A stretch of 64,000 nt of DNA from a virus, in IMG/VR virus record IMGVR_UViG_3300032249_001192, positions 5,524 through 69,523 of that record. The stretch is one strand, 5' to 3'. This document shows, in pieces, positions 38,407-61,642 of this stretch. The position numbers and the translations under genes are program-made. Every line of letters begins with the position of its first letter. Position 1 is the first letter of the stretch. The notes beneath the pieces are model-generated. The model did not search any database. It saw only the letters and a list, made by a program, of their open reading frames with translations, and was not told the origin of the DNA.

Positions 38407-38414
38407 GATATTTT

Positions 38415-39840: not shown

Positions 39841-39846
39841 AAGTAT

Positions 39847-45237: not shown

Positions 45238-45357
45238 AATAAATTCGATTCTTTATGATATTAAACTAGATTAGCCATATTTATAATACTAAATTTTCTA
45301 ATACTTAAGTATTACACTATAATTGCAATAATCTAAGAACAAAGACTGCTTTAAACC

Positions 45358-45385
45358 TTGACTTCAACAACACCAAGAATATAAT
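45358..45385 (+). promoter_or_regulatory. Sigma70-type promoter for the inverted glycosylation cassette
   Basis: TTGACT-16 nt-TATAAT about 45 nt upstream of the ATG at 45430. Confidence 0.7.
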
Positions 45386-45429
45386 CTTATTAGTGTAGCG
45401 CAAGACTTTTAAATGACAAGTTTTTTATA

Positions 45430-47088
45430 ATGAAATCAACCATAGTTACCGGCATATGGGATTTGGGTAGAGATTCTCTGTCTGATGGCTGGAGCAGATC
45501 ATTTGATCATTATAAAGAAAAATTTGCTGTATTACTTGATTCTTTACAAAATATTCCAACTATAGTTTTTATAGACAAAAAACATGAAGATATAGTATGG
45601 AATCATCGTAATAAAGAAAATACAGTAGTATACCACCATACTGCTAATGATTTTGATAATAATTTTTTCCCTTTCAGAGATAAGGTAGAAAAAATAAGAA
45701 CTAGCGAGCAGTGGTTATGTCAAGCAGGATGGCTCAGAGAAAGCACTCAGGCCAAATTATCTCTCTACAACCCAATGGTTATGAGTAAGATGTTCCTACT
45801 GCACAATGCCAAGGTATTTAATCCATTTAATACTGAATATATGTACTGGCTTGATGGTGGAATATCTAATACTGTTCACCCAGGATACTTTAGCCACGAC
45901 AAAGTCTTAGAAAAAATACAAGATATCACTAAAAAATTTCTATTTGTTTGTTTTCCTTATGAAACAGAATCAGAGATTCATGGATTCGATATAAAGAAGA
46001 TGAAAGAATATGCTAAATCAGAAGAGGTTAGTAGGGTTGCTAGAGGAGGATTTTTTGGTGGACATATTGACTATATAGCTGAGGCTAATAATCTATATTA
46101 TAGTCTATTAAGTGATTCTCTTAATAATGGTCTTATGGGTACTGAAGAAAGTATATTTACCCTAATGACATACTTGCAACCAGAAACCTACCAGCATGAA
46201 ATGATTAATCATGATGGTTTGTTGTCTACATTCTTCGAAAAAGTTAAAAATAATCAAACTATTATAGAAGAAACCGTAAAAAATAATCCTAGAAAAAAAC
46301 ATTCAAACAACGAAACAATATTATACATTAATGCTTTTAATTCTCCAGAACAATTACAAATGGTCTTGGATAGTTTTGAACTACATGATAACTCATTTAT
46401 TACTCAAACAAAAAAGATTCTAATAAACAATAGCACAAAAGAAGATCTCTTCAGTAAGTATGATGCCATTTGCGAAAAATACGGATTTTCAGAGCAGATT
46501 AAAAAAGGAAATTTAGGAGTTTGTCGAGCTAGACAATTTGCTGCTGAACATTTTGCAGACCTTGGTTCTAAATACATGATCTTTTTTGAGGATGACATGT
46601 TGTTAGATTATTCTATATCTAATTGTAATTTTGGTTTTAAAAAATCGACACCTAATTTATTAAGTAGTCTTATTCGTATAATGGACAATGAAGAGTATGA
46701 TTTTTTGAAATTTAGCTTTAGCGAATTTTATGGACATAACGGAGAACAGTGGAGTTGGCATAATGTTCCTTCAGAATTACGGGTAAAATATTTTGGAGAC
46801 GCAAAGAAAAAACCTCTCACCAAGTTTTCTTGCATAAAATCTTATAATGGCATACCTTATGCAGAAGGGGAGATTTACTATTCAAATTGGCCCCATATAA
46901 TAGATCAGGAAGGCAACCAAAAACTATTCTTAGATACTACATGGTCAAATCCTTTTGAACAAACGTGGATGAGTCACATATATACTCTAACAATTAACAA
47001 TAAAGTTAAACCGGCAATATTATTAGCTAGTCCAATAACACATAATAGGGTTCATTTTTATGAAGCGAACGAACGCAAAGAAAACTAA
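45430..47088 (+). CDS. HtrL/YibB-like domain fused to a GT2-like domain
   Basis: TIVTGIWDLGR, YWLDGG, GGFFGG, GTEESIF (HtrL-like); C-terminal FFEDDMLL. Confidence 0.75.
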   Translation: MKSTIVTGIWDLGRDSLSDGWSRSFDHYKEKFAVLLDSLQNIPTIVFIDKKHEDIVWNHRNKENTVVYHHTANDFDNNFFPFRDKVEKIRTSEQWLCQAGWLRESTQAKLSLYNPMVMSKMFLLHNAKVFNPFNTEYMYWLDGGISNTVHPGYFSHDKVLEKIQDITKKFLFVCFPYETESEIHGFDIKKMKEYAKSEEVSRVARGGFFGGHIDYIAEANNLYYSLLSDSLNNGLMGTEESIFTLMTYLQPETYQHEMINHDGLLSTFFEKVKNNQTIIEETVKNNPRKKHSNNETILYINAFNSPEQLQMVLDSFELHDNSFITQTKKILINNSTKEDLFSKYDAICEKYGFSEQIKKGNLGVCRARQFAAEHFADLGSKYMIFFEDDMLLDYSISNCNFGFKKSTPNLLSSLIRIMDNEEYDFLKFSFSEFYGHNGEQWSWHNVPSELRVKYFGDAKKKPLTKFSCIKSYNGIPYAEGEIYYSNWPHIIDQEGNQKLFLDTTWSNPFEQTWMSHIYTLTINNKVKPAILLASPITHNRVHFYEANERKEN

Positions 47089-48376
47089 AGCCAAGACTCA
47101 AACAACTAAAAAGAGTAATAAAGTAGAGACTATTTTTATTCAGATAGCTTCATATCGAGATCCTCAACTCCTTCCAACCTTAAGAGATTTGTTTAGTAAA
47201 GCAAAAAATCCAAGCAATATCACCGTTGGAATATGCTGGCAACATTCTCCAGAGGATACATGGGACGTACTAGCGGAGTTTGAGAACGATCCAAGAATAA
47301 AAGCTATAGACATAGACTATAAAGATAGTCAAGGTGTTTGCTGGGCCAGAAATTTGGTTCAGTCTCTATATGATGGAGAAACATATACTCTACAACTAGA
47401 TAGTCACCACAGATTCGTTCAAGACTGGGATGAAATTCTAATAGATATGCTAAAAGGTTTACAAAAAGATGGATACAATAAACCGTTAATAACAGCATAT
47501 ATACCCAGCTTCGATCCAGACAATGATCCCGCATCTAGAGTTCAAGAGCCTTGGAAAATGAATTTTGACAGATTCATTCCTGAAGGAGCAGTTTTCTTTT
47601 TACCTGCCTCTTTTGATTCTTGGGACGATAAAACCAAACCTCTTCCAGGCAGATTTTATAGTGCTCATTTCGCTTTTAGTGTAGGAGCATTTTGTAAGGA
47701 GGTTCCTCACGATCCTCAGTATTATTTTCATGGTGAAGAAATTAGTATTGCCGCTAGAGCATATACTCATGGGTACGATATATTCCATCCTCATAAGGTT
47801 GTCTGTTGGCATGAATATACCAGGAAAGGAAGAACCAAGCAGTGGGATGATGATAAAAAATGGGGTGACAGGAATAATATCTGTCACCTAAGAAACAGAA
47901 AATTGTTTGAAATGGATGGAGAAAAAAGAGATATAGATTTTGGCCAATATGGTTTTGGCACAGTAAGATCTTTGAGAGATTATGAAAAATATAGTGGATT
48001 ATCATTTGGTAAAAGAGCTATACAAAAAAGAGTACAGGATCATCAAGCACCACCAGATCCAGAAACGTCCTATCTAACCGATGAAGATTTTGATAAAAAA
48101 CTGTTAAGAATATTCAAACACTGCATAGATATTCAATATGGTCAAGTACCAGAAAATGATTATGATTTTTGGGCTGTTGCTTTTAAAGACAAAGAAGGCC
48201 AAGATATATACAGGCAGGACGCAGATAAAGATGAAATATTACGTATTAAAAATGATCCAGATGGATATTGTAAGGTGTGGAGAGAGTTTCAAACAGAAGT
48301 TAGCCCAACAAGCTGGTTGATTTGGCCTCATAGCTTATCAAAAGGATGGGCAGAACCGATTATAGGATATCTGTAA
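47060..48376 (+). CDS. GT60-family polypeptide N-acetylhexosaminyltransferase (Skp1 GlcNAc-T/Gnt1-like)
   Basis: IFIQIASYRDP, GVCWAR, LQLDSHHRFVQDWD (DxH), SAHFAFS, EVPHDP..YFHGEEISIAARAYTHGYD. Confidence 0.88.
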   Translation: MKRTNAKKTKAKTQTTKKSNKVETIFIQIASYRDPQLLPTLRDLFSKAKNPSNITVGICWQHSPEDTWDVLAEFENDPRIKAIDIDYKDSQGVCWARNLVQSLYDGETYTLQLDSHHRFVQDWDEILIDMLKGLQKDGYNKPLITAYIPSFDPDNDPASRVQEPWKMNFDRFIPEGAVFFLPASFDSWDDKTKPLPGRFYSAHFAFSVGAFCKEVPHDPQYYFHGEEISIAARAYTHGYDIFHPHKVVCWHEYTRKGRTKQWDDDKKWGDRNNICHLRNRKLFEMDGEKRDIDFGQYGFGTVRSLRDYEKYSGLSFGKRAIQKRVQDHQAPPDPETSYLTDEDFDKKLLRIFKHCIDIQYGQVPENDYDFWAVAFKDKEGQDIYRQDADKDEILRIKNDPDGYCKVWREFQTEVSPTSWLIWPHSLSKGWAEPIIGYL

Positions 48377-48385
48377 AAACATTTT

Positions 48386-48997
48386 ATGCAAATATTCTCA
48401 AATATTAGTGCTATTGGAGATTCTCATGTTGGTGCTTTTTCACCATACTGTAGATTGTGTACTCTTGGTCCAGTTACCATGTATTCGTTGACAACAGATA
48501 AGCTTAATGAATATATTGTTTATTTACTTGAACGAAAAGAAATAGATATTAATGGCTGGTGGATTTTTTGTACCGGTGAAATAGATATAAGATGCTTATT
48601 GTACAAACAAATAAATGAGTACGGCAGAAAAGAGGACGAGACTATAGAAACATTAGTAGATAATTATATCTCTAGTCTATATAAGCTGAATCACGCAAAG
48701 TTAGCCATATCAACCACAGTACCTCCTGCAAAAACAGAAGGTTTTGAAGTTCAACAAAAACATACCATCAATTCTGACTATCCTTTTAAGGGATCAGATT
48801 CAGAAAGAAACAGATGGTCTAAAAAACTAAATCACTATCTAATAAATAAGTGCATAGAAAAAAACATTACTTATTTAGATATATACTCTCTATTCAAAAA
48901 CAACGAAGGATTTTTAGATCATCAATATATAGACGCAGATATGATACATGTTTCAAAAAATGATAAAATCGTCACACTACTTAATAATTTATACTAG
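48386..48997 (+). CDS. SGNH-hydrolase-like protein
   Basis: IGDSH, GEIDIR, DMIH (DxxH). Confidence 0.7.
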   Translation: MQIFSNISAIGDSHVGAFSPYCRLCTLGPVTMYSLTTDKLNEYIVYLLERKEIDINGWWIFCTGEIDIRCLLYKQINEYGRKEDETIETLVDNYISSLYKLNHAKLAISTTVPPAKTEGFEVQQKHTINSDYPFKGSDSERNRWSKKLNHYLINKCIEKNITYLDIYSLFKNNEGFLDHQYIDADMIHVSKNDKIVTLLNNLY

Positions 48998-49005
48998 GAG
49001 AAACT

Positions 49006-49746
49006 ATGAATTTACTTTCCGCTCTGACAACATATGATGTTAATTCAAATAAAATAAGAATAGGTAATCAGCATGATGGTGGATATATTATCAATGATCT
49101 CATAGTTAAAAATACCAAAAGATTGATTTCTGTAGGAATAGGCGGAGAAGACAATTTTGAATTACAGTGGGCAGAAAAATTCCCAACAACATCCATAGAA
49201 GCATACGACGGAACGTACCCATGTAACAATTTGTGTAATAAATTTCCTGATAGAATTAACAAAAACATTTTTTACGTTCATAATGACGTTGGTTTTGGAG
49301 AAAAACAAATTCCTCTCAATACAATCGTAGATAGCAAAGAAGGAGTTTTATTAAAAGTTGATATAGAAGGTGGCGAATATACTGCATTTGATAATTTATA
49401 TCCAGACAGTAATCTAACAGGACTCATCTTAGAAGTCCACGATTTACATATACCTGAGAATTGTCAAAAAATAGCAAAAATAATAACTGAAAATTTCAAA
49501 AACTTGCTTCTTTTCCATGTTCACGGAAATTCGTGGGGAGGTATGTTTGATTTGAACTTGACACCCAGTGTCAATGACGGTATACTAATCAAGAGGTTCC
49601 CTCATGTGCTAGAACTTACATTCATATCAAAGCATATTGTGGATAATTACTCTCTTGAAAAGGGTAAATTCCCTGTAGACGGTTTGGATAATACTAACAG
49701 ACATGATTTTCCTGATATAGATCTTTATTGGATAAATGCTATATGA
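49006..49746 (+). CDS. FkbM/Methyltransf_22-like methyltransferase
   Basis: RIGNQHDGGY, LKVDIEGGE, LEVH, HVHGN. Confidence 0.8.
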   Translation: MNLLSALTTYDVNSNKIRIGNQHDGGYIINDLIVKNTKRLISVGIGGEDNFELQWAEKFPTTSIEAYDGTYPCNNLCNKFPDRINKNIFYVHNDVGFGEKQIPLNTIVDSKEGVLLKVDIEGGEYTAFDNLYPDSNLTGLILEVHDLHIPENCQKIAKIITENFKNLLLFHVHGNSWGGMFDLNLTPSVNDGILIKRFPHVLELTFISKHIVDNYSLEKGKFPVDGLDNTNRHDFPDIDLYWINAI

Positions 49747-50603
49747 TATACATATCACTATGTGCCATGCCAGATAGACTAGAGACTAAAGATAGTTCGT
49801 CTCAGTGTTTATCTTCTTTATTAGAACAAGAAACAACCCATGAATATAAAGTTCTTTTGAATATTCCTTTAAAATTAAGGAACTATGAAAATACAACTAT
49901 ACCACAATGGGTATTGGATTTAGAAGTAGCATATAATGGTAAGCTTATTATTCTTAGAGACGATATAGACTATGGACCAATATCTAATCTATTGTCTCCC
50001 ATTAAGCTAATAAGTATGGATCCAAATGATATTATTATTATTTGCGATGATGATCATATGTACGACCCAAAGATGATTGAATACCATCTTAAAAAGCTGC
50101 AACAATATCCTGACCATCATGCTATTTGTTTTAGAGGGAATCAACCACTAGAACTAAGAACGTGGTATATAGATAACGTTAAATATGGTAAACTCTATAA
50201 TTCGTGTGTTTTATTTCCAACAAGAAATGATATTTATTTAAAATTGCCTGATCATTGGCATAGCGTATCGTATCGTAGAAAGTTTATTCAACAAGATATT
50301 TTTGATCAAGATTTTTTAAATATATCTTGGAATAACGACATTTTAATGGGGTGCTATGCATGGTCTCATGACTTTTATTTTTTATGTGCTAACTACGATC
50401 AAGAGAGTGATTTTAGACCCGTTAACTATGATGGTCGAGGAGCTAATTCTTTCCCTTTAATGAAGATGCTTCCATTTTCTGGAGACAGTGGTTGCAATAG
50501 ATGGAGGAATCAAAATAAGAAACCGGGTGAAGATATATGGGATTTAGAAAAATTTCGACAACTATTTGATAAGGATAAAGGAATAATACAATTATGGAAA
50601 TAA
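49728..50603 (+). CDS. GT-A-fold glycosyltransferase
   Basis: ISLCAMPDR, DYGPI, IIICDDDHMY; paralog of the next gene. Confidence 0.7.
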   Translation: MDKCYMIYISLCAMPDRLETKDSSSQCLSSLLEQETTHEYKVLLNIPLKLRNYENTTIPQWVLDLEVAYNGKLIILRDDIDYGPISNLLSPIKLISMDPNDIIIICDDDHMYDPKMIEYHLKKLQQYPDHHAICFRGNQPLELRTWYIDNVKYGKLYNSCVLFPTRNDIYLKLPDHWHSVSYRRKFIQQDIFDQDFLNISWNNDILMGCYAWSHDFYFLCANYDQESDFRPVNYDGRGANSFPLMKMLPFSGDSGCNRWRNQNKKPGEDIWDLEKFRQLFDKDKGIIQLWK

Positions 50604-51364
50604 TTATATCTCTAACAACTGTACCTAATAGGTTATATGAGCATCACGGTCATTCAGCCACTAGGGCTGCTCTCACCACTTTATTAGAACAGTCATATCC
50701 CTTATATTCTGTTCACCTAAATATTCCTTTAGAATATAGAGGAGAGCAAGTTTCTATACCAGATTGGCTTAATGACTACACAAATAAATACAAACATCTA
50801 AAAGTTTTTTTAACACAAGACTACGGATCAATAACCAAGCTAATACCAACTCTAGAGAGAGTTGAAGATCCAGAAAGTATTATAATACTAGCAGATGATG
50901 ATCTTTACTATATGGATGGATTAATTGCTGCACATATCAATGGAAGACAAAAATACCCAGACTATGCATTAGGTTTCGCTGGCATGGCGGCAATAGATGG
51001 TTCCTGCCACTTTTGTACAACGATACCAAAGGATACTAGAGTTAAAGTTCTAGAAGGATACAAAACTGTATCATACCTAAGAAAATTTTTCGATATTAAT
51101 GAACTCAAAAAAGATTTCGTTGGCAAGTCTTGGAGAGATGACGAAACATTATCGGCTTATATGGGCTATAGGAATATTAAAAAACTAGTACTATCATATG
51201 ATGGAGATACTGACTTTTCTCCTAGAGTAGAGTCCTTTCCGGTAATTGGTCATGTTCCAGCAGAAAGAGGTGGATGTAATTTATTTAGGGACTGCTCTGA
51301 TTCTCAAAACAAGTCAGAACAAAATATACAAGAATTTTTTAAACTTGGTTACTTAGAAAGATAA
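50594..51364 (+). CDS. GT-A-fold glycosyltransferase
   Basis: ISLTTVPNR, DYGSITKLIP, ILADDDLYY, DDETLS. Confidence 0.75.
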   Translation: MEIIISLTTVPNRLYEHHGHSATRAALTTLLEQSYPLYSVHLNIPLEYRGEQVSIPDWLNDYTNKYKHLKVFLTQDYGSITKLIPTLERVEDPESIIILADDDLYYMDGLIAAHINGRQKYPDYALGFAGMAAIDGSCHFCTTIPKDTRVKVLEGYKTVSYLRKFFDINELKKDFVGKSWRDDETLSAYMGYRNIKKLVLSYDGDTDFSPRVESFPVIGHVPAERGGCNLFRDCSDSQNKSEQNIQEFFKLGYLER

Positions 51365-51366: not shown

Positions 51367-51747
51367 ATGAAATACTTTTATTGTGTTATTTTAACGGTTG
51401 TTTTATCCCAGAACGTCTGCGCTCAACAGTGGTCTAATCCTGAAAATGCTAATCTTACAAATAGTATGACAAATTTAATGGTTAATTTTGGCATTGCAGG
51501 AATGCAAACGGCACAACCTTCTTTAGCAAATAATACTAATTCATATTTAGATTATCAAAATGGATATTATCAAGAACTACAAAATAGTTTAACTAAAACT
51601 GAAATATATTTTCAAAAAAGACAAACTAATATGTACTACAGAGAACTTGAAGTTATTCAAAAACGAGAACTTAAAGATCTTAAAAAATATAATCAGTTGA
51701 CGATACCAGAACTAAATAGGATTTTTGATAGAGATATCAGAAACTAA
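51367..51747 (+). CDS. Exported hypothetical protein
   Basis: Signal peptide MKYFYCVILTVVLSQNVCA; Q/N/Y-rich helical body. Confidence 0.6.
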   Translation: MKYFYCVILTVVLSQNVCAQQWSNPENANLTNSMTNLMVNFGIAGMQTAQPSLANNTNSYLDYQNGYYQELQNSLTKTEIYFQKRQTNMYYRELEVIQKRELKDLKKYNQLTIPELNRIFDRDIRN

Positions 51748-52679
51748 AATACCGGATTAATAATTCCATATCCTTGGTACTTTCTTATTCCTTTATATCT
51801 AGGATTTTCTAAAGAAATAGCATGTAGTTTAAATACTTCTATATAGTCTTCGTATGTTTTAAGTTGATATTTTTTATGCTTATTATTATAGCTTAATAAT
51901 AAAGAAGCACAACCAACCACAAATGGATTACTCATGCTGGTTCCACTCATACTAGCATATCTATTTCCTGGAACACATCCAATAATATTGTGACCAGGAG
52001 CTAAAAAGTCTAAATCATCTCCACTACAAGTAAATGAAGTACGATTCATATTTTCGTCTATCGCCCCTATAGATATAGTATTTTTATATCTAGCAGGATA
52101 CATTATCTCAGCATTCTCTCCGCTATTTCCAGCAGCGCAAAAAACAACACATCCCTTACCATTAGCATGTGTTATAGCCTCCTCTATAGCTTTTGATGGT
52201 GCGGGTGAACCAAGGCTCATGGTTATAAAATCTACATCTCCGTGATCTGCAGCCCAGTAAATCCCATCTGCAACTGTGTTCATTGATCCTGACCCATCGT
52301 CTCCAAGTGATTTAATCGGAATAATTTTAGTCATAGGAGCAACGCCAACCATACCAAAACCATTATCTGATGCAGCTATTGTAGAAGCAACATGGGTTCC
52401 ATGCCCAGCGCCGTCTATTGGTTCTTTATTTTGGTTAATAAAGTTTTTCCCGGGTAATAAATTATCTACTAAGTCTTTATGAGTTAAATCACATCCTGTG
52501 TCTATAACAGCTACGACCACTCCTTCTCCTTTAGATTCTTTCCATAGATTCGGTATATTAAATTTTGTAAGTTCCCACCCTTTGAATTGTGGATCATTTA
52601 CAGATAGTCCATATACATCTTCTCTGACATATGGTAATAGAGAGATATTGTTTTTCTTTTTAAAAAAACCTCTAGTCAT
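51744..52679 (-). CDS. Subtilisin-like (S8) serine protease
   Basis: VAVIDTG, HGTHVA, AAGN, SGTSMS. Confidence 0.95.
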   Translation of the reverse strand: MTRGFFKKKNNISLLPYVREDVYGLSVNDPQFKGWELTKFNIPNLWKESKGEGVVVAVIDTGCDLTHKDLVDNLLPGKNFINQNKEPIDGAGHGTHVASTIAASDNGFGMVGVAPMTKIIPIKSLGDDGSGSMNTVADGIYWAADHGDVDFITMSLGSPAPSKAIEEAITHANGKGCVVFCAAGNSGENAEIMYPARYKNTISIGAIDENMNRTSFTCSGDDLDFLAPGHNIIGCVPGNRYASMSGTSMSNPFVVGCASLLLSYNNKHKKYQLKTYEDYIEVFKLHAISLENPRYKGIRKYQGYGIINPVF

Positions 52680-52681
52680 GA

Positions 52682-53428
52682 TTACTCCTTAGTTTTTGCT
52701 AATATTTCTGTTATCCATTCAACATGATCGCTAATTCGCGTATGTCCACTTTCTGTACCGTACGTTGATCGTACAGCACCCTTTTCATGTATTACACAAG
52801 AATTAATTCCTGCTATTTTGTTGTCTATAAATAATCCACCACCACTATCCCCACTCCCTATACAAAACTCAAGTTCTGTTCTATTAGATCTAGAAGGAGA
52901 ACATATTAAAAGTCCCCGATCAATTCTATCTACAATATTAGATCCTGCTCTTTTTTTATCGTCAGAAATATTTGCACCAGTTAGAAAAGTTCCGGTAATC
53001 CCATAACCGGAGATAGAGCAAACTTTACCAGTTTCATTAGTTTTTGTATATAGCTCAGGATACCAATCTAATCCAATATTTTCTTCTAAAAAACATATTG
53101 CAATATCGTGATAACCAAATTGATCAGAATTATATTTGGGATGAATAATAATTTTAGCCACTTTTATATTTTTACCATTTATTTCAACAGCACAATCTAT
53201 AATATCTTCTACCATATGGGCAGCAGTTAATACTACTTTATCTTTATGTGCAACTCCAGAACCAAAAAAGGGTTTAGTGTCTGGCATTTTCCCTTTTACT
53301 TTAGAAACATAAACGAACTTGGATCCGTATGAGACATATTTAGAGTCTGGAGTATTAGGGTCTATGGTTCCAGAATAAGCTACAGAACCTATCAAGAATA
53401 CTACTAAAGATAGTAAAAATTGACGCAT
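52682..53428 (-). CDS. Exported trypsin-like (S1) serine protease
   Basis: Signal peptide; LTAAH, DIAI, GDSGGG. Confidence 0.92.
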   Translation of the reverse strand: MRQFLLSLVVFLIGSVAYSGTIDPNTPDSKYVSYGSKFVYVSKVKGKMPDTKPFFGSGVAHKDKVVLTAAHMVEDIIDCAVEINGKNIKVAKIIIHPKYNSDQFGYHDIAICFLEENIGLDWYPELYTKTNETGKVCSISGYGITGTFLTGANISDDKKRAGSNIVDRIDRGLLICSPSRSNRTELEFCIGSGDSGGGLFIDNKIAGINSCVIHEKGAVRSTYGTESGHTRISDHVEWITEILAKTKE

Positions 53429-53735
53429 GGTTTTGCACTTTAAGAGAGTAGGGGCGATTCTTAACCTTATTTAAATACACCGAGCAATCATTAATCACAT
53501 CAACATTCCAACTACTATAATCCATTAAATGGCCAAAAATAAAATGACAATTAGGACATAAAGTAATAAGATTAGTTAAATCCAACTCTCTGCTTGGATT
53601 GACATGAAAAGGCTCTATATGATGTACCTGAATTTTTTTGCATGAACCGCAAGCCATGCAGCAGGGTTGTGATAGTAGGTGTTTTTTTCTTACTGATGTC
53701 CATTCAGGAGATCTGTCGGATAAAATATTCCACAT
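53355..53735 (-). CDS. Small HNH endonuclease
   Basis: CMACG...VHHI...NLITLCPNCH. Confidence 0.85.
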   Translation of the reverse strand: MWNILSDRSPEWTSVRKKHLLSQPCCMACGSCKKIQVHHIEPFHVNPSRELDLTNLITLCPNCHFIFGHLMDYSSWNVDVINDCSVYLNKVKNRPYSLKVQNHASIFTIFSSILDRFCSLFWNHRP

Positions 53736-53750
53736 TTTTTCACTATACTA

Positions 53751-54290
53751 TCAGCTTATTTCCATATAAACACAATAATTTCCAACATTATCAAACCATG
53801 TTCCACTATCCCATATTCCACAATATACATATCCAGAGGATGGGGCAACTATATTTCCTCCCAATCCTATATAAAAAGCATTAGTAGTAGTAAATGGTAT
53901 TGACGGTGAGTTTGTTGCAGATATAACTCCAAATACAGCGTTGTAATTGCCTATAAAAGCATTGGGAGTACCATATAGACCACGAGCATCACTAAGACAA
54001 GAACCAGCAATACAAGAAACACACCCTCTAACAGAGAAACTTATAGTCTGACCCGCTGTCACAAACTGCTGACCAATTCTTTTAAGTGTTGCTCCATCGG
54101 AATAAACTAATGATGTTTCAATGGGTAGGCACGTAATACTTTCGGCACTTATACACATTCCGGTTCGCGTGGGTGTGATTGTTGGTGTGGGTGTAGGTGT
54201 ATTTGTTGTTGTTATCGTAGGAGTCGGAGTAACGCTACTTAATGGTTTTTGAGTAGCTACTGGACAGCAATTAATATTAATAATAGTCAT
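53751..54290 (-). CDS. Thr/Pro linker plus LecA (PA-IL)-like lectin domain
   Basis: TPTPT linker; AGQTISFSVRG...IGLGGNIVAPSSGYVYCGIWD..WFDNVGNYCV resembles the PA-IL fold. Confidence 0.6.
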   Translation of the reverse strand: MTIININCCPVATQKPLSSVTPTPTITTTNTPTPTPTITPTRTGMCISAESITCLPIETSLVYSDGATLKRIGQQFVTAGQTISFSVRGCVSCIAGSCLSDARGLYGTPNAFIGNYNAVFGVISATNSPSIPFTTTNAFYIGLGGNIVAPSSGYVYCGIWDSGTWFDNVGNYCVYMEIS

Positions 54291-54311
54291 AAATAATACT
54301 TTCTTAAATTA

Positions 54312-56771
54312 TTATACAATAGGATTATGCTCAAAAAAGTAAACATCTGAGTCAGCAACAACCCCATTATTAGTTACTCTACACCACAGCTTATAGTAAC
54401 CTCTGCAACTCCTATTAAACCTAATACTATTTGGATCTAATGTATCAATGGAATTAGGTATAGATCGCGTCCAACAAGGAGAAGTAAGCATAATGGGAGA
54501 AGTCGGGGATGAGCAATCTCTATCATAGTATATGGCCCACCATTCATATATTGTATTTCCCTGTGGGTTCTGAATAGTAGAGCTTACACTAAACACATCA
54601 CCATCTCTAGTAATATCAGAATTTAATGGATCAGTTATGATGCAATCACTGAGACATCGTGGGAATTGATCACTCCGTGGGTGAAACTGATTACCGTTAC
54701 ATCCATTAGTGGTCGTATTGTTTTTTGTAAAAGATATCGTGGTTGGCGGACAAATAAATGACCCCGCAACAACAATATCGTTAGGTATACATACCGCTAA
54801 TACAATATTATTGGATGGATTTTTTAAGACTACTCTTCCAATACCATTATGACACCTTTCCCCCGCACAAACCAGCTTTAATTCTGTTAAACTACTTGTT
54901 ATTATATGATTATTTATAGTAAAAACACCCTCTCTATATCCTCCGTCACCAGCATTATTTAAATTAGCTTGTCCTATTAAAATGTTATCTATATAGAAAT
55001 CAAAAATAGCTCTATTACAACTATGTCCGCCTCCGCAATTAACTGGATCATATGAGACTATTGCGGTATAGCCATACAGATCAATACCTGCAGCTAAACA
55101 TACTTCTGGTTGTGGTGGGGGTGGGGGTGGCGGCACCGCAGGTATTATTATATCTCTAATATTAGATCTTGAACAACAAGTTCTTCCCCCAATACGTAAC
55201 TGTATATTAGATGCTCTATTCCCTCCTGGAGATATTATAGAGTTTGGTATGTATAGTTTGAGAATTTTGTGATCACAACCAACAACTGCTGCTCTAGTAG
55301 GATTCGGAGTTTTTGTTACTGTGGGTGTTAGCGTTATTGTAGATGTTACCGTAGGAGTAGCCGTAACAGTTGGAGTTGCTGTTGACGTAGTTTTAATGGT
55401 GGGAGTAATCGTTAAAGTTGGAGTTGGTGTTGGAGTTGATGTTTGCGTTGCTGTGACGGTTATTGTTGGTGTTGGTGTGGGGGTAGAAAATAGACCATCT
55501 CCCACACTATTTGCACTAACACAGGTTGGATCACTATCGCTTTGAGTAGCATACTTCCAATATCCAGCATTGGTTCCTCCACCCTTATAATATGCTGCTT
55601 TATACCATTCGTTTTCCGTTGGAATGTGGTATTTTGCGCCAGGATTCCTAGCCACAGCATCTCCGGTAGTACTGCCATTTAAAGTATAGGCTCCGTCTTC
55701 AGTAGTGCTGCTGTTTTGAGACCCAGTTGGTTTTCCGTTATGTAGCCAATTACAATATCTTGCACAGTCAAACCAGCTTACATATATTACCGGCTTGTTT
55801 CCGTAATTAGTTTTTACTGAGTAAGTGTAGCTTCCACTAGCTCCTGATCTATTGATCGCCGACCCCTGAATCGAATTACTCGCCATATTGACATTGTAAA
55901 GAGCATACGAGTCAGTTGCGGCAACAGCATTCAAAAATTCAACATATTCACTATTAGTAACAAGATATTTTCCCACGGCGTAGCTGTAACCAACACTGCC
56001 TCTTCCAACTCTTCCTCCAGTATCAGGAGAGTTGTTAACATCACCCACAGTCACAAAGTTAGAAAGGACTAAAGGATTAAGTATGGAGAAGGAACTGGCG
56101 ATACGAAAACCGATGATATTGATCACTTCCGACGTGGTGGAGGCGGGTAGGCCGAGGGAGGGCGACGCCAAGTAGAATGCAGCAGCATCGCCCCAATAGC
56201 CGCCCCGCAACTCGCGAGCTGAATCATTCCACTCATAGACTTGCCCAATTTGATCATAAGTACCATATGCACTAGGTCCACCATTAGTTCCAACAGAGGT
56301 GACATTGCCATTTTTACCATCCCAATCAGCACAATAATTAAAATTAGCAGAGTTAGATCCCGGACACAATGAGTTAAATACTAATCTGTTATTTCCTCCC
56401 ATATATCCATGGTAATAACAGTAATAGCTTAATTCTGGTGGTTGTGCTCCTACTCCATTAACAGTAATTGTTACATTACCATAGTAAAAGTCATATGACA
56501 CTCCACCAACTGTTTTTGTTAGTTTATTATTAACGTCTCCAGAATATGATATAAATGATTCATAGCCTGAGTTTAAAATTGCAATAGGATGAGCAGAGGG
56601 GACTCCTGTTAAAGTATATGTACCTATTTGATATCCTAGTTTATGATCAAGATTATTAGGATCAAAACCCGGACCCTCTGCAAAAGTAAAGTTGTAATTT
56701 CCTTCAACAGCGGATACTGCTGTATTATTTCTCATACATCTAATTATCATGGTATAATATCTCCAAAACAT
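54312..56771 (-). CDS. Modular adhesin-like protein: cupredoxin-like, circularly permuted FGE-sulfatase (CLec) domain, Thr/Pro linker, Cys-rich domains
   Basis: HP...YYCYYHGYMGG; FGE motifs GQVYEW, RGG.W, IGFR, GKYLVTN.EY, PV.YVSWFD, PTENEWYKAAY; TPT tract; polyproline stretch. Confidence 0.8.
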   Translation of the reverse strand: MFWRYYTMIIRCMRNNTAVSAVEGNYNFTFAEGPGFDPNNLDHKLGYQIGTYTLTGVPSAHPIAILNSGYESFISYSGDVNNKLTKTVGGVSYDFYYGNVTITVNGVGAQPPELSYYCYYHGYMGGNNRLVFNSLCPGSNSANFNYCADWDGKNGNVTSVGTNGGPSAYGTYDQIGQVYEWNDSARELRGGYWGDAAAFYLASPSLGLPASTTSEVINIIGFRIASSFSILNPLVLSNFVTVGDVNNSPDTGGRVGRGSVGYSYAVGKYLVTNSEYVEFLNAVAATDSYALYNVNMASNSIQGSAINRSGASGSYTYSVKTNYGNKPVIYVSWFDCARYCNWLHNGKPTGSQNSSTTEDGAYTLNGSTTGDAVARNPGAKYHIPTENEWYKAAYYKGGGTNAGYWKYATQSDSDPTCVSANSVGDGLFSTPTPTPTITVTATQTSTPTPTPTLTITPTIKTTSTATPTVTATPTVTSTITLTPTVTKTPNPTRAAVVGCDHKILKLYIPNSIISPGGNRASNIQLRIGGRTCCSRSNIRDIIIPAVPPPPPPPQPEVCLAAGIDLYGYTAIVSYDPVNCGGGHSCNRAIFDFYIDNILIGQANLNNAGDGGYREGVFTINNHIITSSLTELKLVCAGERCHNGIGRVVLKNPSNNIVLAVCIPNDIVVAGSFICPPTTISFTKNNTTTNGCNGNQFHPRSDQFPRCLSDCIITDPLNSDITRDGDVFSVSSTIQNPQGNTIYEWWAIYYDRDCSSPTSPIMLTSPCWTRSIPNSIDTLDPNSIRFNRSCRGYYKLWCRVTNNGVVADSDVYFFEHNPIV

Positions 56772-58909
56772 TTGTTGTGTACTGAATAAGAATAATATCC
56801 AGGATTTGCTGGGTCACAATCAACGGCAGAACTTGGTAGTGCTGCCCAGGTGTTGCTATTATCTAAAGAGTATTCAATATCACAACAACATAGTTCGTTT
56901 TTCTCTACTTGTAATTCTACTATAATACCACCATCAACTAATGAGCCGTCTATGAATCCATCACAAACAATTATTGCTGGACAGTATGATGGAGATGGTG
57001 TTATTGTGGGGGTTGGCGTTAGTGTAGGAGTAGGAGTTGGTGTTACACATATAGATTCTAAACAATATATTCCAGAGAATACTGTCCATGAACTAGAGAT
57101 CGGTGAAGGAGAAGTAGATATTGAATCGTTATATGCTGAAGAACAATCGGTAAAATCAATGGCTCTTATTCTGAAAGTTAATGGTCTACCAGCAGTATTT
57201 ATACAGGTTCCGTCTCCTCTTATAATATCGCTACTAGTTAAAGTATACGTATAAGAAGTAATGCTTGTATTAAAAATACAAATATTGTCTACTATGTTGC
57301 CAGGTAAGCCGCTACTACCGCGACTATCTAATGTTTGTATTTGATAACCGGTCATACATGCTTGGTTACGACCATTAGTACCCTTTAACCAATCTAATAT
57401 CACTGTTGCTTCTGAACCAGATATACCAACAGATGAGCATGAAGCAGATATATTATTGACTGTTGGCGCAGCAAGTGCACAATTGGGTGTTGGTGTAGGA
57501 GTTGGACTTTGACTAGGAGAAGGGGTACAACAATTACAGTTGCTTGTATTACCTTCAAATGTCCATATTGGAGGAATATTACACTGACATGCAGTAGATA
57601 TTCCAGTTATAGTTAATCCTCCAACACAAGAGATATTAGCATTTGCTGTCCATTTATTAGCACATGATCCAGCACCAGTATATGCTACACTAGGATCACA
57701 AGTAACAGACATAAAGTATGTGTCACCACAAGCCAATGTTCCGCTACTAGTCCAATAATTAGGCATGACCTTCGTAAATAATAAGTCTAAAGATATGGTT
57801 CTGGTCACATTACTACAATTTAATACAAATGTAGTCAAACCATTCCATTCACAGCAGGATTGTTTACTTGGTGAGGGGGTTAATGTTGGAGATGCTGTTA
57901 ATGATGGAGTAGGAGTTAGTGTTCTTGTAACTGTTTGAGTTGGTGTTCTTGTTGGAGTAGGAGTACAGCAAGTACAATTAGTAAAATCGCCAATGAAACT
58001 CCAAATAGGAGGAGCATTACATTGACATGCTTCTTTTATTCCGGTAATTATTAAACCAGTAACACAGGATATTGTCAATGAGGAAGTCCATTTATTAACG
58101 CAAGAGCTGAATCCTGTGTATCTAACAGTTGGATCGCAAGTGATAGTAGCACTAAACGTATCCCCACATAATAAAGTCCCACTAGCCTGCCATCTATTTG
58201 CTGCTGTTTTGGTATAAGTTACTGGAATAACTAAATTACCACAAGAAGCATCAAATTCTAAATATGTATTACCATCCCATTCACAACAGGTAACTGTAGA
58301 TGGACTTGGAGTATTTGTTGGAGTAGCAGTAATTGTGATAGAAGGAGTAATAGAAGGTGTTACTGTGGCAGTAGCAGATCTTGTAACAGTGATTGTTGGA
58401 GTTTGACTTACTGTGATACTTGGTGTTAGCGTAGGTGTTTGCGAAGGTGTTCTTGTTTGTGTATTAGTTTGAGTAATACTAGGAGTTAGTGTAGGGGTCG
58501 ATGTAGCCGTTTGACTATTAGTGGGGGTTGCAGTTGGTGTTCTTGTATTAGTGGGGGTGTTTGTTCTAGTTGTTGTTGTGCTTGGGGTTACAGTAGGTGT
58601 TACTGTTCTTGTTACTGTTCTAGTTGGTGTTCTTGTTGGAGTAACTGTTCTAGTAACAGTAGTGCTTGGAGTTATTGTCGGCGTAAGGGTTGGTGTGGGT
58701 GTTGGTGTTTTTTTAGGGGTTTTAGTTGGTGTTGGGGTTTTAGTGGGTGTCTTAGTAGGCGTTTGACTAAGAGAATTTCTATCTATAAAAGGACACCCAT
58801 CATCCGACCTTATCCTTGGGGGTTTTGGAGTTTCTGTTGGTGTTCTGGTTGGTGTTGGAGATGGCGGAAGTATTTTCCGCTCATTTTGTCCGTTCATTCT
58901 GTTTGTCAT
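56747..58909 (-). CDS. Mucin-like Thr/Pro-rich protein with two 12-Cys repeats and an FN3-like domain
   Basis: Several TPT tracts separated by duplicated CCEW...CGDT...CDP...CQC...CxCC domains; LTFRIRAID. Confidence 0.8.
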   Translation of the reverse strand: MTNRMNGQNERKILPPSPTPTRTPTETPKPPRIRSDDGCPFIDRNSLSQTPTKTPTKTPTPTKTPKKTPTPTPTLTPTITPSTTVTRTVTPTRTPTRTVTRTVTPTVTPSTTTTRTNTPTNTRTPTATPTNSQTATSTPTLTPSITQTNTQTRTPSQTPTLTPSITVSQTPTITVTRSATATVTPSITPSITITATPTNTPSPSTVTCCEWDGNTYLEFDASCGNLVIPVTYTKTAANRWQASGTLLCGDTFSATITCDPTVRYTGFSSCVNKWTSSLTISCVTGLIITGIKEACQCNAPPIWSFIGDFTNCTCCTPTPTRTPTQTVTRTLTPTPSLTASPTLTPSPSKQSCCEWNGLTTFVLNCSNVTRTISLDLLFTKVMPNYWTSSGTLACGDTYFMSVTCDPSVAYTGAGSCANKWTANANISCVGGLTITGISTACQCNIPPIWTFEGNTSNCNCCTPSPSQSPTPTPTPNCALAAPTVNNISASCSSVGISGSEATVILDWLKGTNGRNQACMTGYQIQTLDSRGSSGLPGNIVDNICIFNTSITSYTYTLTSSDIIRGDGTCINTAGRPLTFRIRAIDFTDCSSAYNDSISTSPSPISSSWTVFSGIYCLESICVTPTPTPTLTPTPTITPSPSYCPAIIVCDGFIDGSLVDGGIIVELQVEKNELCCCDIEYSLDNSNTWAALPSSAVDCDPANPGYYSYSVHNKCFGDIIP

Positions 58910-58912
58910 TTA

Positions 58913-59914
58913 TTACAATACTTTCGCAGCTATTAAGCATCCTTTTGATACTGAGTGCAAAGGATCGGCAGCGTGCTTAACTTCTTTAATAGATAAAGGA
59001 AAATTATTCTCTAATAGTTTTTTCTTAAAGTGTTCAATATAACCACCTGCTTGGGATGTGCCACCAGCTATTACTATTGTTAGAGGTTCTTTAAACTTAG
59101 GCAAAGACTTATGATCGGTAAGTGCTGCTGATAATTGCTTGGTAGTATAATCTATTAAACGATCATAATAAGAAGATATAGCAGCTAAAATAGGGCTATC
59201 ATTATGCTGACCAACATTAAAATTCCCACCCTCCTTCTCAGCCTGTACAACACTATCTGGTTCTCCCGTGGCTACTGCGCTCATTCTGTCAACCCAATCT
59301 CCAGACTTTGTTGTAGAAAATACAACAGTCGGCTCACCATTTAGCATGACGCAAACATTAGTCATACCCGCACCACAGCTGATAGCTATTCCAGTATAAT
59401 CGTTATCTGCTAACTCAGCATAACACAAGGCTTCTGCTTCGTTAATTGATTTAGCATCATAGCCACAACTATCCAAGATAGTTTTTACCACATCTTCATG
59501 ATATCCAACATCAAAATCTTCATCTTCTTGGTCTACTGGTTGAGCAGGGACGCAGAAAACAATCTTTTCAAGGGGCTCTGAAGATTGCCCGACTACTTCC
59601 TTTAAAATAAAAGCCAATACTCTTTTTGCATCCTTCTCTTTTGCTGAAACCACTCCTTTAAACATGGGTCTTTTAGCATTGTCATTTCTTTCAATAGCTT
59701 TTTCTATAGCGTCTTGTCCAAGAATAATAAAAGATCCGTCTGCATCTTTAATAAAAACTTTACCAGCTAGACCCTTCTCTATCATCTTCGTTGCTACAGG
59801 AGTAGCCGGTTTAATGATATAAAAAGCATCTCTAAAGTCTTTATATTGTACTTTATTTTCTTTGTCTTCTGATAATACAATATAACTTGTTCCTACATCC
59901 AAACCCTTTGCCAT
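58913..59914 (-). CDS. Actin-fold ATPase (MreB/FtsA/MamK-like)
   Basis: Phosphate-1 GLDVGTS, VFCVPA, connect-1 INEAEA, phosphate-2 ISCGAGMTN, adenosine IAGGTS, connect-2 DPLHSVSKG. Confidence 0.85.
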   Translation of the reverse strand: MAKGLDVGTSYIVLSEDKENKVQYKDFRDAFYIIKPATPVATKMIEKGLAGKVFIKDADGSFIILGQDAIEKAIERNDNAKRPMFKGVVSAKEKDAKRVLAFILKEVVGQSSEPLEKIVFCVPAQPVDQEDEDFDVGYHEDVVKTILDSCGYDAKSINEAEALCYAELADNDYTGIAISCGAGMTNVCVMLNGEPTVVFSTTKSGDWVDRMSAVATGEPDSVVQAEKEGGNFNVGQHNDSPILAAISSYYDRLIDYTTKQLSAALTDHKSLPKFKEPLTIVIAGGTSQAGGYIEHFKKKLLENNFPLSIKEVKHAADPLHSVSKGCLIAAKVL

Positions 59915-59917
59915 AAT

Positions 59918-60226
59918 TCACCTTTTTAAATTTTGAAGTTTATTAACAGATTCAGAAATATTATCATTTGATAATTTAGTATCGCCCAATTTGTTATATT
60001 TTTTTTCTATGCCGTCTGTACTTATATCAGTAACAAATTTCCTGTCATCTATAATAATCTTATTTTGACTTTTTTCACTATTATATTGTTTATTTGTTTT
60101 TGATACTAATTTATCAGTCATTACACATCCTCTATTCTTTAATTGTCCTATAATATAACCCATTCCAAAAGATACAAAATTAAATAGTATCAATATTATA
60201 CTTAACAACGATGCAGTGTCTATCAT
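59918..60226 (-). CDS. Single-pass membrane protein
   Basis: LLSIILILFNFVSFGMGYII anchor; first gene after the GGTGTA motif. Confidence 0.65.
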   Translation of the reverse strand: MIDTASLLSIILILFNFVSFGMGYIIGQLKNRGCVMTDKLVSKTNKQYNSEKSQNKIIIDDRKFVTDISTDGIEKKYNKLGDTKLSNDNISESVNKLQNLKR

Positions 60227-60249
60227 GTGGATAGCCTCCTTACCAGATT

Positions 60250-60255
60250 TACACC
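60250..60255 (-). promoter_or_regulatory. GGTGTA motif immediately after a terminator
   Basis: TATGGTGTAAAT between the terminator and the GGAGG RBS. Confidence 0.6.
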
Positions 60256-60262
60256 ATACAAT

Positions 60263-60293
60263 AAAAGAAAAAAGGAGCGATTGCTCGCTCCTT
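60263..60293 (-). terminator. Rho-independent terminator after ruvB
   Basis: AAGGAGCGA-GCAA-TCGCTCCTT (GNRA loop) followed by TTTTCTTTT. Confidence 0.9.
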
Positions 60294-60331
60294 AATTTTA
60301 AAAACAGGGTTGTAATCGGCCCGTAGTTTTA

Positions 60332-61222
60332 CTACATCGTACCCATGACTCTACCCTTTTGAGTACGAACAACATACCCCTTACGAACCAAAAACGGCTC
60401 AATACTATTTTCGATAGTGTCTAAAGCTATTCCTGTCATTGCTGATATAGACTTGAGACCCAAAGGATTGCCCTTATTTCGTCGCAAAGCATCAATATAA
60501 AGCCTATCATAGAGATCTAAACCCTTACTGTCTATACCCTGAGTAGAAAAAATTGTATCAATTGTACATGGTTCAGCATGGCATATCTTATAATTTTTGT
60601 ACCATAATAGTCTAGCATTAAGAATTCTTGGAGTACCCTTGCTTCTTTTTGCTATCTCAACCAAATCATCATCCGAAATCTCTAAATCTAGTTTAGCAGA
60701 GTTCAATCTTGCTACTTTAGCTAGATCATCGTCCGTATAGAAAGAAAGATGTTCTTTAATTGTGAATCTATCATAAAATGGCTGACTTAAGCTTCCTCCA
60801 CTTGTAGTCGCTCCGATCAGAGTAAACATCGGCAGATCAATAGTTTCTGGAGCATCGTCTGACGATATACTAAGTACGAAATCTTCCATAATAGGATAGA
60901 GAAACTCCTCTACCGCTTTGGGCAATCTGTGTATTTCATCAATAAATAACACAGACCTAGCAGATATTCCCATAATATATGGCAAAATATTCTTTATGCT
61001 ACGAACATTCGCCGCGTTAAGAGTATAAAGACTGACACTCATCTCGTTAGCTATGGCACTCGCTATGGTGGTCTTACCAAGCCCAGGAGGGCCATCTATT
61101 AAAACATGAGGCAGCACACTGCCAGACATTTTACAACCCGTTGCAGAGATGCGTAGACGCTCAATAACGTCTCCCTGTCCAATAATTTCATCGAAACTCT
61201 TCGGTCTTGTAACATTTGCCAT
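60332..61222 (-). CDS. ruvB: Holliday junction branch-migration helicase RuvB
   Basis: RPKSFDEIIGQ, GPPGLGKTT, LFIDEIHRL, IGATT, GTPRI, IEPFL...RTQKGR. Confidence 0.95.
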   Translation of the reverse strand: MANVTRPKSFDEIIGQGDVIERLRISATGCKMSGSVLPHVLIDGPPGLGKTTIASAIANEMSVSLYTLNAANVRSIKNILPYIMGISARSVLFIDEIHRLPKAVEEFLYPIMEDFVLSISSDDAPETIDLPMFTLIGATTSGGSLSQPFYDRFTIKEHLSFYTDDDLAKVARLNSAKLDLEISDDDLVEIAKRSKGTPRILNARLLWYKNYKICHAEPCTIDTIFSTQGIDSKGLDLYDRLYIDALRRNKGNPLGLKSISAMTGIALDTIENSIEPFLVRKGYVVRTQKGRVMGTM

Positions 61223-61225
61223 AAT

Positions 61226-61642
61226 TCAGATTCCTCCAAAAATTTTAAGTGCATCCTTCACTAACAATAAAGGATTGTCACACTTATTAGTACTATATAC
61301 CTTAGTTATTAAATCTACAGCTTCTTTGTTAGAAAAGCCATAGGTTGCCAAAATTTTATATGCTTTTTTAAGATACTCAGGCTCAACTTGTATCACTATT
61401 TCAGACAGCTTATCGTGTTCGGTTTTAGGTTTTTTATTCTTTTTGGAATATTGTGTTTTTATATTTGTAATCTGTCTTATTTTATAGACAATACCACAAT
61501 CACAAACAAGCTTAAAGCCTTTAACCTGAACTTGATTTAAAAATAGCCAATGTTCTGATTCACAGTCTGTATTTGTACATCTATATTTAAACTGAGCATC
61601 TAGACTAATCGGTTTCAGGCTTTTGACTTGATTTTGTATCAT
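61226..61642 (-). CDS. Zinc ribbon plus RuvA C-terminal (domain III)-like protein
   Basis: CTNTDC...CDC; AYKILATYGFSNKEA...LLVKDALK parallels RuvA ALVALGYKPQEA...LIREALR. Confidence 0.7.
   Translation of the reverse strand: MIQNQVKSLKPISLDAQFKYRCTNTDCESEHWLFLNQVQVKGFKLVCDCGIVYKIRQITNIKTQYSKKNKKPKTEHDKLSEIVIQVEPEYLKKAYKILATYGFSNKEAVDLITKVYSTNKCDNPLLLVKDALKIFGGI

Follow-up and report, generated by a model that had tools for sequence, protein, structure and literature searches.

A 64-kilobase (kb) stretch of viral DNA, analysed here over its full length and referred to as the window, encodes an actin-like ATPase, a 102-residue single-pass membrane protein (the anchor) and a secreted trypsin-like protease. 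We propose that the three form a transmembrane phage system in which a cytoplasmic volactin-type actin is coupled through the anchor to a protease outside the cytoplasm, a reading to which we assign a probability of roughly 55%. In such a system the volactin-family actin would presumably polymerise in the cytoplasm, and the single-pass anchor, with its N-terminus facing outward and its tail inward, would hold the actin filaments at the membrane. Actin filaments or filament ends would recruit, cluster or position the anchor and would thereby place protease activity on the envelope, at the outer face of the membrane, which would be the periplasm in a host with two membranes. In most relatives the protease is encoded separately, just 3' of the actin gene; in four diverged relatives it is joined covalently to the outer end of the anchor. 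This reading was built from computed family membership, an actin fold, conserved adjacency, membrane topology, a gene fusion and a predicted actin-anchor complex that passed its controls.

The ATPase matched the Pfam family Volactin (PF25216) at 222.4 bits (cut-off 35), residues 1-330 aligning with positions 1-321 of the 321-position profile, and the same match was obtained when the whole record was searched. Membership of the MreB/Mbl family (PF06723) was rejected, as a partial match covering residues 57-209 scored 22.7 bits, below the cut-off of 27, and no ParM-type Pfam family was found for the ATPase at an expectation value (E) up to 0.01. An AlphaFold2 (AF2) model of the protein, with a predicted local distance difference test (pLDDT) value of 94.6 and a predicted template modelling score (pTM) of 0.91, displayed an actin fold with four subdomains. 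The best Foldseek matches of this model in the PDB were the MamK filament 5ljv (E 2.8e-15, template modelling (TM) score 0.73), the BeeR filament 8r2n and MreB, each with a probability of 1.00. Used on its own, the ATPase sequence found no match in the PDB; a profile of 87 family members recovered MamK (2e-15), BeeR (1.3e-10) and MreB (7.6e-9), and also FtsA. In the alignment of these 87 sequences D6, G8, E159, G284 and G285 were invariant and T9 and T286 were conserved at 90% or above, and the phosphate-1, connect-1 and adenosine motifs were conserved in the family. An earlier note on this DNA, made from the sequence alone, had remarked that the phosphate-2 stretch is atypical. This stretch does read SCGAGM, with serine in place of the usual aspartate, and it is also the family consensus, with S179 conserved in at least 90% of the family alignment and G181 and G183 invariant. 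In the profile alignment, DIGAGTTD of MamK stands opposite SfGaGmvN of the family. As the stretch is conserved in the family and aligned with the MamK motif, SCGAGM is best regarded as a family signature and not as a local defect.

The anchor carries one hydrophobic helix at about residues 5-29 and matched no Pfam or PHROG family; the family to which it belongs comprises 830 clusters and is unannotated. Across 52 distinct homologues from related loci, a membrane helix ending in GYxxG(R/K) is followed by a variable linker and a tail of ~45 residues ending in NKLKNxK(R/G). Conservation is highest in this tail, the mean frequency of the majority residue being 0.72 for residues 58-102 versus 0.42 for the linker. 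In all 53 sequences (53/53) positive charge is higher on the C-terminal than on the N-terminal side of the helix, and by the positive-inside rule the anchor is predicted to adopt an N-out/C-in topology with a cytoplasmic tail.

Actin and anchor residues 30-102 were co-folded using our own actin alignment, in three runs and with three controls. This gave a score of 0.69 for the pair (runs 0.62, 0.69 and 0.69) and 0.00 for the best control. Of 157 solved complexes, 116 came up to the 0.69 mark, against 2 of 215 mismatched pairs; these counts apply only roughly here because our own alignments were used. At least 83% of contacts were common to the runs, and the pLDDT of the partner was at least 56. 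The predicted interface joins anchor residues 67-101 to actin residues 17-27, 46-58, 97-107, 142-149, 165-173, 192-193 and 317-332, with the most confident contacts lying between tail residues 83-98 and actin residues 22-25, 165-173, 193 and 324-332. Following the order of secondary-structure elements in the model, the latter actin residues map to the IA-IIA connecting helix, a IIA hairpin and the C-terminal helix, three elements that, from the topology of actins, we take to form the hydrophobic groove where IA and IIA meet. In the predicted complex the anchor tail wraps around IA and IB, and we infer that its last helix would occupy the groove between IA and IIA. A pairing of the small membrane protein with the actin had been suggested in the earlier note, and is supported by the predicted binding (0.69 versus 0.00) and by the adjacency of the two genes in 72 of 80 related loci.

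A comparable arrangement has been described for ParR on ParM and for arcadin-2 on crenactin, where a C-terminal helix behind a variable linker enters the hydrophobic groove between IA and IIA (PMC5173319). The contacts predicted for the phage anchor tail fall on the matching actin elements. ParR binds DNA and arcadin-2 is soluble, whereas the phage partner is a membrane protein that shares no sequence likeness with them and is accompanied by no centromere-like repeats. This likeness also raises the alternative that the anchor tail is mainly a regulator, which would sequester actin monomers or cap filaments at the membrane, with neither the membrane nor the protease having a positional role. 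The predicted interface spans both the groove region and subdomain IB, surfaces that form longitudinal contacts in actin-like filaments. Arcadin-2, which has the same layout, is described as depolymerising crenactin via the hydrophobic groove (PMC5173319). A soluble protein would suffice for sequestration, however, and 53 of 53 sequences, as well as the fused forms described below, retain the membrane helix with its predicted N-out/C-in topology; we therefore consider a mainly regulatory tail quite unlikely.

We next turn to gene order, which was compared across the best 80 of 288 IMG/VR relatives, with actins 80-95% identical to that of the window, by tblastn with the window proteins of the region. 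Relatives of RuvB, the anchor and the actin were present in all 80 loci, and the anchor gene lay no more than 25 nucleotides (nt) 5' of the actin gene in 72 of them. The conserved order was RuvB, anchor, actin, sometimes an HNH endonuclease, a secreted trypsin and sometimes a subtilase. Where at least 1.5 kb of downstream sequence was available, the actin gene was followed directly by an HNH, trypsin or S8 gene in 44 of 76 loci and by something else in 32. Genes further downstream were counted in the 49 loci with at least 9 kb of 3' sequence, which revealed a relative of the trypsin in 44, of the HNH endonuclease in 31 and of the S8 subtilase in 26. Judged by this gene content, the trypsin is the third conserved partner of the putative system, and the S8 subtilase appears to be a facultative neighbour.

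The window trypsin matched PF00089 with 57.2 bits (cut-off 20.6) and starts with a hydrophobic, signal-like segment. All 41 distinct standalone orthologues share an N-terminal hydrophobic segment together with the AAH and GDSGG motifs, the catalytic aspartate having been assessed by eye only, and none of the 41 has a C-terminal membrane helix. Searching longer proteins with the anchor profile identified four proteins of 357-382 residues (P0394-P0397) in which an N-terminal signal-like segment is followed by a Pfam Trypsin domain, then by a membrane helix and finally by the anchor tail. The protease part of these fusions is 44-53% identical to the window trypsin over its whole length, compared with a median of 50% among the standalone orthologues themselves, and the tail part is 37-48% identical to the window anchor. 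As the four fusions are only 43-54% identical to one another, the fusion is likely old and maintained rather than an accident of assembly. The layout fits the deduced topology, with the protease predicted outside and the tail inside. In one such locus (L123) the order is RuvB, a secreted thioredoxin, HNH, the fused protease-anchor and the actin, with a gap of 2 nt between fusion and actin and no separate trypsin within 5 kb after the actin. The suggestion in the earlier note that the actin may remodel the host envelope thus finds some backing in four trypsin-anchor fusions beside the actin gene.

A gene for a secreted thioredoxin (WCGAC motif, PF00085) lies no more than 35 nt 5' of the anchor gene in 26 of the 80 loci and is absent from the window. 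In L123 it occupies positions 5236-5637. The thioredoxin could serve to fold the cysteine-containing secreted protease.

The company of the actin and anchor genes suggests a different role, in which the two would constitute a replication or genome-positioning system whose membrane-tethered filaments place phage DNA or a replication or packaging factory, in the manner of AlpC/AlpA for prophage CGP3 or PhuZ for nucleus-forming phages, the link to the protease being incidental. The pair follows RuvB in 80 of 80 loci, in a neighbourhood with primase, DnaB, UvsX, ribonucleotide reductase and other DNA-metabolism genes, and many relatives lack a terminator between ruvB and the anchor gene. AlpC is reported to require a co-transcribed adaptor and to support phage replication (PMC4446434). 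The five complete relatives, in which a Pfam Tubulin (PF00091) match was found in none, are compatible with such a role for the actin, as is a weak ParB-type helix-turn-helix on some cellular volactin-family proteins; in P0153 this domain is N-terminal, with an E of 3.5e-4 that lies below the Pfam cut-off. Yet the partner here is a membrane protein without a DNA-binding domain, and window positions 58800-61400 hold only short two-copy matches and no iteron- or centromere-like repeat array. A positioning system would also leave unexplained the fusion of the anchor to an exported protease in four diverged relatives, and we judge it unlikely.

Several points weigh against a coupling of actin, anchor and protease across the membrane. 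The co-fold score expresses the confidence of the model and is not a measurement, and solved complexes in which a partner helix lies in this groove of an actin-like protein may raise it by likeness. The groove itself was assigned from the contact list, the secondary-structure order and general actin topology, not from coordinates. As the phosphate-2 aspartate is serine in the family, the behaviour of the ATPase may differ from that of classical actins. Signal peptides were assessed from hydrophobicity only. Fusions are rare, forming 4 clusters versus 830 of standalone anchors, and the standalone anchor, which shows only a few residues beyond the membrane, would have to meet a free protease. 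Anchor and actin are separated by other genes in 8 of the 80 loci, by ~600 nt in four and by 4.4-6.6 kb in the other four. Finally, all 80 loci represent one lineage with actins at least 80% identical, and the shared gene order could therefore be plain inheritance; in both of two distant huge phages examined, which encode a 33%-identical actin, no membrane anchor, RuvB or protease adjoins the actin.

The single lineage behind the synteny and the missing linkage in the two huge phages also speak for there being no physical system at all. The core genes would then be chance neighbours and the fusions accidental read-throughs, with an actin that works by itself, perhaps through interference with host MreB or with cell shape. 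Such a reading is at odds with four fusions that keep one order of parts at a mutual identity of 43-54%, with a tail that is the most conserved part of the anchor, and with a co-fold that passes while its controls stay at 0.00, and we hold it to be very unlikely. We continue to favour the three-part system, within which we infer polymerisation, real binding of actin and anchor, the use of the groove, a protease target and a benefit to the phage.

The nearest named relative of the phage actin by family is volactin (VolA, HVO_2015) of Haloferax volcanii, which belongs to the same Pfam family, PF25216. The published account describes H. volcanii volactin as forming dynamic filaments that span the cytoplasm and touch the membrane by their tips only (PMC10869688), a behaviour that fits an end-binding membrane anchor. 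VolA is archaeal whereas the phage actin is viral, and the two are likened via the family profile. By both fold and profile the nearest solved structure is MamK (5ljv, 5jyg), a filament former linked to a membrane organelle. MamK is, however, only 18% identical to the phage actin, and carries DIGAGTTD where the phage family has S-x-G-A-G-M-x-N; magnetosome genes are absent here.

The closest parallels for the arrangement as a whole are MreB-RodZ, FtsA-FtsN and PilM-PilN, in each of which a cytoplasmic actin-fold protein binds the short inner portion of a membrane protein that crosses the membrane once and does its work outside; such complexes were among the fold matches (2wus, 7q6i and 5eou). 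The phage anchor resembles these partners in its one helix, its predicted cytoplasmic tail and the fusions that place a protease before the helix. The RodZ, FtsN and PilN systems are cellular and serve wall growth, division and pili, whereas the phage system is viral and its outer module is an S1 protease. The predicted anchor site also appears to differ from the binding sites of RodZ, FtsN and PilN. As a tentative extension that we think doubtful, the phage proteins might form a 'demolition complex' mirroring the wall-building machine of the cell, in which filaments gripped through the groove would steer or cluster the outer protease and the envelope would be cut at chosen places or times. 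The secreted thioredoxin would help in many relatives, and exit sites, stripped receptors or a reshaped cell could result.

Phage cytoskeletal proteins had been compared with the actin in the earlier note, which named PhuZ and AlpC-type actins; the comparison holds as a likeness of kind, but the family is Volactin and the nearest solved structure MamK. AlpC of prophage CGP3 is reported to be a phage filament with an adjacent, co-transcribed partner, AlpA (PMC4446434). It belongs to a different actin family, and AlpA binds DNA whereas the partner here is a membrane anchor. PhuZ, for its part, is a tubulin; none of the 5 complete relatives has a Pfam Tubulin match. FcmB was also considered and set aside, as it belongs to a ParM-derived family unrelated to the phage actin.

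Relatives of the window's actin numbered 1827, the best 120 of which are all at least 81% identical to it, and each of the five complete relatives (5/5) carries a single copy. The family as a whole comprises 933 representatives at the 50% clustering level (E up to 1e-3), and in the ESM Atlas the clusters that bear the name 'Volactin domain-containing protein' have a recorded viral share of 50-100%. No actin in the set of 150 best representatives is fused to an N-terminal membrane anchor; the same set includes inteins, tandem copies, zinc ribbons and one Wzz/BY-kinase fusion. Three actins of ~700 residues (P0122, P0130 and P0145) are split, after about residue 170-205, by an intein with a LAGLIDADG homing domain, and other ~700-residue forms that were matched in two stretches may likewise hold inteins. 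P0187 (1160 residues) combines the volactin domain with Wzz, a weak GNVR match and a ParA-type (tyrosine-kinase-like) module and has two membrane helices; it represents an actin covalently linked to a polysaccharide co-polymerase. In the two phages of 485 and 595 kb that encode the 33%-identical actin, a small, unannotated protein without a membrane helix is encoded directly 5' of the actin gene (L082:3334-3957 and L083:3762-3992), and these small proteins may be a different kind of partner.

The genes of the region are listed in Table 1. The eight minus-strand genes described in the earlier note, from the anchor to the subtilase, were all recovered as open reading frames (ORFs), and they are tightly packed, with gaps of 3, 3, 21, 15 and 2 nt and overlaps of 25 and 74 nt. 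The identities that the note had given to the membrane protein, the actin-fold ATPase, the HNH endonuclease, the trypsin and the subtilisin were borne out by the hydrophobic helix and by Pfam matches, the export of the trypsin by its signal-like N-terminus, and the order of a ruvB terminator followed by GGTGTA by a hairpin and the motif at the expected places.

Table 1. Features of the actin-protease region, in window coordinates and in their order along the minus strand.
Feature	Position	Strand	Basis
RuvB-like AAA+ helicase	60332..61222	-	Pfam RuvB_N 2.5e-43, AAA_lid_4 3.2e-8, RuvB_C 1.7e-16
Terminator-like hairpin plus T run, 3' of the ruvB stop	60272..60293	-	9 pairs, 5 of them G-C
GGTGTA promoter-like motif	60250..60255	-	24 nt 5' of the anchor start codon
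Anchor, 102 residues, single-pass membrane protein	59918..60226	-	one N-terminal hydrophobic helix
Volactin-family actin-like ATPase, 333 residues	58913..59914	-	PF25216 E 1.4e-65
Variable cargo 1, 720 residues, Thr/Pro-rich	56747..58909	-	composition; no Pfam family
Variable cargo 2, 819 residues, FGE-sulfatase-type domain	54312..56771	-	PF03781 8.5e-16
Variable cargo 3, 179 residues, Thr/Pro- and Cys-rich	53751..54290	-	composition; no Pfam family
HNH endonuclease, 126 residues	53355..53735	-	PF01844 8.2e-8; phrog_144 1.1e-11
Secreted trypsin-like (S1) serine protease, 248 residues	52682..53428	-	PF00089 2.8e-15
S8 subtilase, 311 residues	51744..52679	-	PF00082 9e-52; phrog_3677 4.3e-79

Between the actin and HNH genes lie three proteins whose composition agrees with their description in the earlier note as Thr/Pro- and Cys-rich: the 720-, 819- and 179-residue proteins contain 150, 82 and 26 threonines, 76, 55 and 13 prolines and 40, 24 and 9 cysteines, respectively. 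Inspection of the translations found no N-terminal signal-like segment in any of the three. The 720-residue protein has two Cys-rich repeats of ~110 residues and relatives in only 8 loci; the ESM Atlas gave only weak FN3/Ig-like leads for it (scores 0.80-0.82). In the 819-residue protein, residues 260-406 form an FGE-sulfatase-type (C-type-lectin-like) domain, which is accompanied by a Thr/Pro linker and, towards the C-terminus, a Cys-rich part. Elsewhere the slot behind the actin holds other proteins of up to 2915 residues with FGE-sulfatase-type domains, and in one locus (L008) a protein with DUF642 and a weak PA-IL match below the cut-off.

In the earlier note these proteins had been read as mucin-stalked adhesins, the eight genes as one late operon, and a membrane-tethered actin as the organiser of adhesin display with two proteases. 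The tight spacing in the window, the promoter-like GGTGTA that also precedes genes near the prohead protease, and the lectin-type domains of the cargo (FGE-sulfatase here; DUF642 and PA-IL in L008) would suit a late operon of this kind. However, of the 49 loci only 6, 6 and 4 have relatives of the 720-, 819- and 179-residue proteins, respectively, the slot is empty in 44 of 76, where the actin is directly followed by HNH, trypsin or S8, and elsewhere it is filled by unrelated proteins as large as 2915 residues. Display on the infected cell is also unlikely because none of the three cargo proteins has a signal peptide. The idea that the actin organises adhesin display is not borne out, and we regard the reading as a whole as highly improbable. 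The linkage proposed in that note stands for anchor, actin and trypsin, and falls for the adhesins, the HNH endonuclease and the subtilase (26 of 49) as conserved members of a module. From their distribution, the Thr/Pro- and Cys-rich, lectin-like proteins appear to be exchangeable cargo at an actin-protease hot spot and not parts of the system, and they would fit fibres or decorations of the virion better than display on a cell surface.

The surroundings of the actin gene likewise appear to be a hot spot for glycan-related cargo. In L022:3385-9923 sugar- and capsule-type genes lie between anchor and actin, and three loci are similar, as seen in translations only. Islands of glycosyltransferase and other sugar-modifying genes flank the region in the window at 45430-51364 (+) and 32916-41754 (-). 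A fourth Thr/Pro-rich protein, of 891 residues and without a Pfam family, is encoded at 42562-45237 (-), where the G/C skew is extreme (+0.41 for 44001-46000); with low-complexity filtering on, it had no relative across the 80 loci.

The HNH gene varies in position, lying after the actin or before the anchor (L042 and L123), and this change of place among relatives suits a homing endonuclease; it is probably a mobile homing gene. As called, its ORF overlaps that of the trypsin by 74 nt (53355-53428), and HNH proteins in relatives are ~100 residues long. The S8 subtilase scored 176.6 bits (cut-off 21.8), lacks a signal peptide and shares 36-47% identity with proteases from large Bacillus phages.

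Upstream of the anchor gene, hairpins of differing sequence occupy the same spot behind ruvB in some relatives; in others the ruvB or thioredoxin gene directly abuts the anchor gene and there is no intergenic region. Where relatives do have an intergenic region, the combination of a hairpin and GGTGTA(A/T) 5' of the anchor gene is seen again; among 49 distinct upstream regions, 15 retained GGTGTA 21-32 nt 5' of the start of the anchor gene. On the minus strand of the window 5 of 14 GGTGTA copies are intergenic, where the intergenic share is only 5.2%; two further copies sit at the edges of gene starts, and some lie near the prohead protease. The 9-mer around GGTGTA was not enriched in the window when one mismatch was allowed (26 matches versus 23.5 expected). 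The extended form (A/T)GGTGTA(T/A)(T/A) is found on the minus strand at 60250-60255, 28078-28083, 25919-25924, 23293-23298 and 8265-8270, and also at 27411-27416 and 29896-29901, and twice stands right behind a hairpin plus T run. It is plausible that GGTGTA is a phage promoter element, and it may be read by the phage sigma factor encoded at 30653-31252.

The window is 64 kb out of a 69.5-kb IMG/VR virus record (completeness ~50% by CheckV) and is part of an uncultured jumbo-phage lineage. Its gene set is typical for a large phage and includes replication and recombination genes (primase, DnaB, UvsX-like recombinase and PhoH), genes of nucleotide metabolism (ribonucleotide reductase, dUTPase and dCMP deaminase), a prohead protease, a sigma factor and many sugar-modifying enzymes; no tRNA genes were found in the 64-kb window. 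The nearest relatives are complete genomes of 197-244 kb, two of which have terminal repeats. A close cultured phage was not found, DnaB matching only distant Bacillus-type phages at 26-34% identity; the actin sequence matched 2 of 50,697 phage records, and no BFVD viral model was closer to the actin than 15% identity. DNA datasets containing the region are labelled lake water or freshwater, and most contain only small shares of it; for positions 51744-61300 no RNA dataset was listed. In the genome collections the only matches were four short contigs (L117-L120; 2-9.5 kb) with actins 76-82% identical to the window's, filed in metagenome-assembled genomes (MAGs) labelled Chitinophagia, Alphaproteobacteria, Flavobacteriales and Thermoplasmatales. 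We take the contigs to be mis-binned phage DNA, probably through binning errors in public genomes, and for that reason no host was inferred from the MAG labels. The window also contains a low-GC block at 12001-22000 (guanine-cytosine fraction 0.27-0.30 versus 0.33-0.38 elsewhere) that could be an island of recent acquisition; apart from a methyltransferase-like part of 12409-14031, none of the nine ORFs in it matched a PHROG.

Literature listings, abstracts and passages, supplements not included, contained no mention of phage volactin-family actins, of their anchor or of the protease fusion, and the Volactin-domain label is already assigned to such proteins automatically in databases. A strongly conserved actin with its own membrane anchor is widespread in jumbo phages from many metagenomes. 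For annotation this carries a warning, as conspicuous 'adhesin' genes beside the actin would be swappable cargo and not parts of the machine. The Volactin family was named only in 2024, from an archaeon, and the archaeal work reportedly left binding partners open; the anchor provides a candidate binding partner for a volactin-family actin that is open to experiment, the parts of the system being small and expressible in Escherichia coli without the host. To our knowledge, the phage cytoskeletons studied so far (PhuZ; AlpC and Alp7-like actins) act on DNA or on the phage nucleus. The system proposed here suggests that viral cytoskeletons may also target the cell envelope, and the more doubtful 'demolition complex' would, if true, be the first virus-encoded cytoskeleton to work across a membrane on the envelope and not on DNA.

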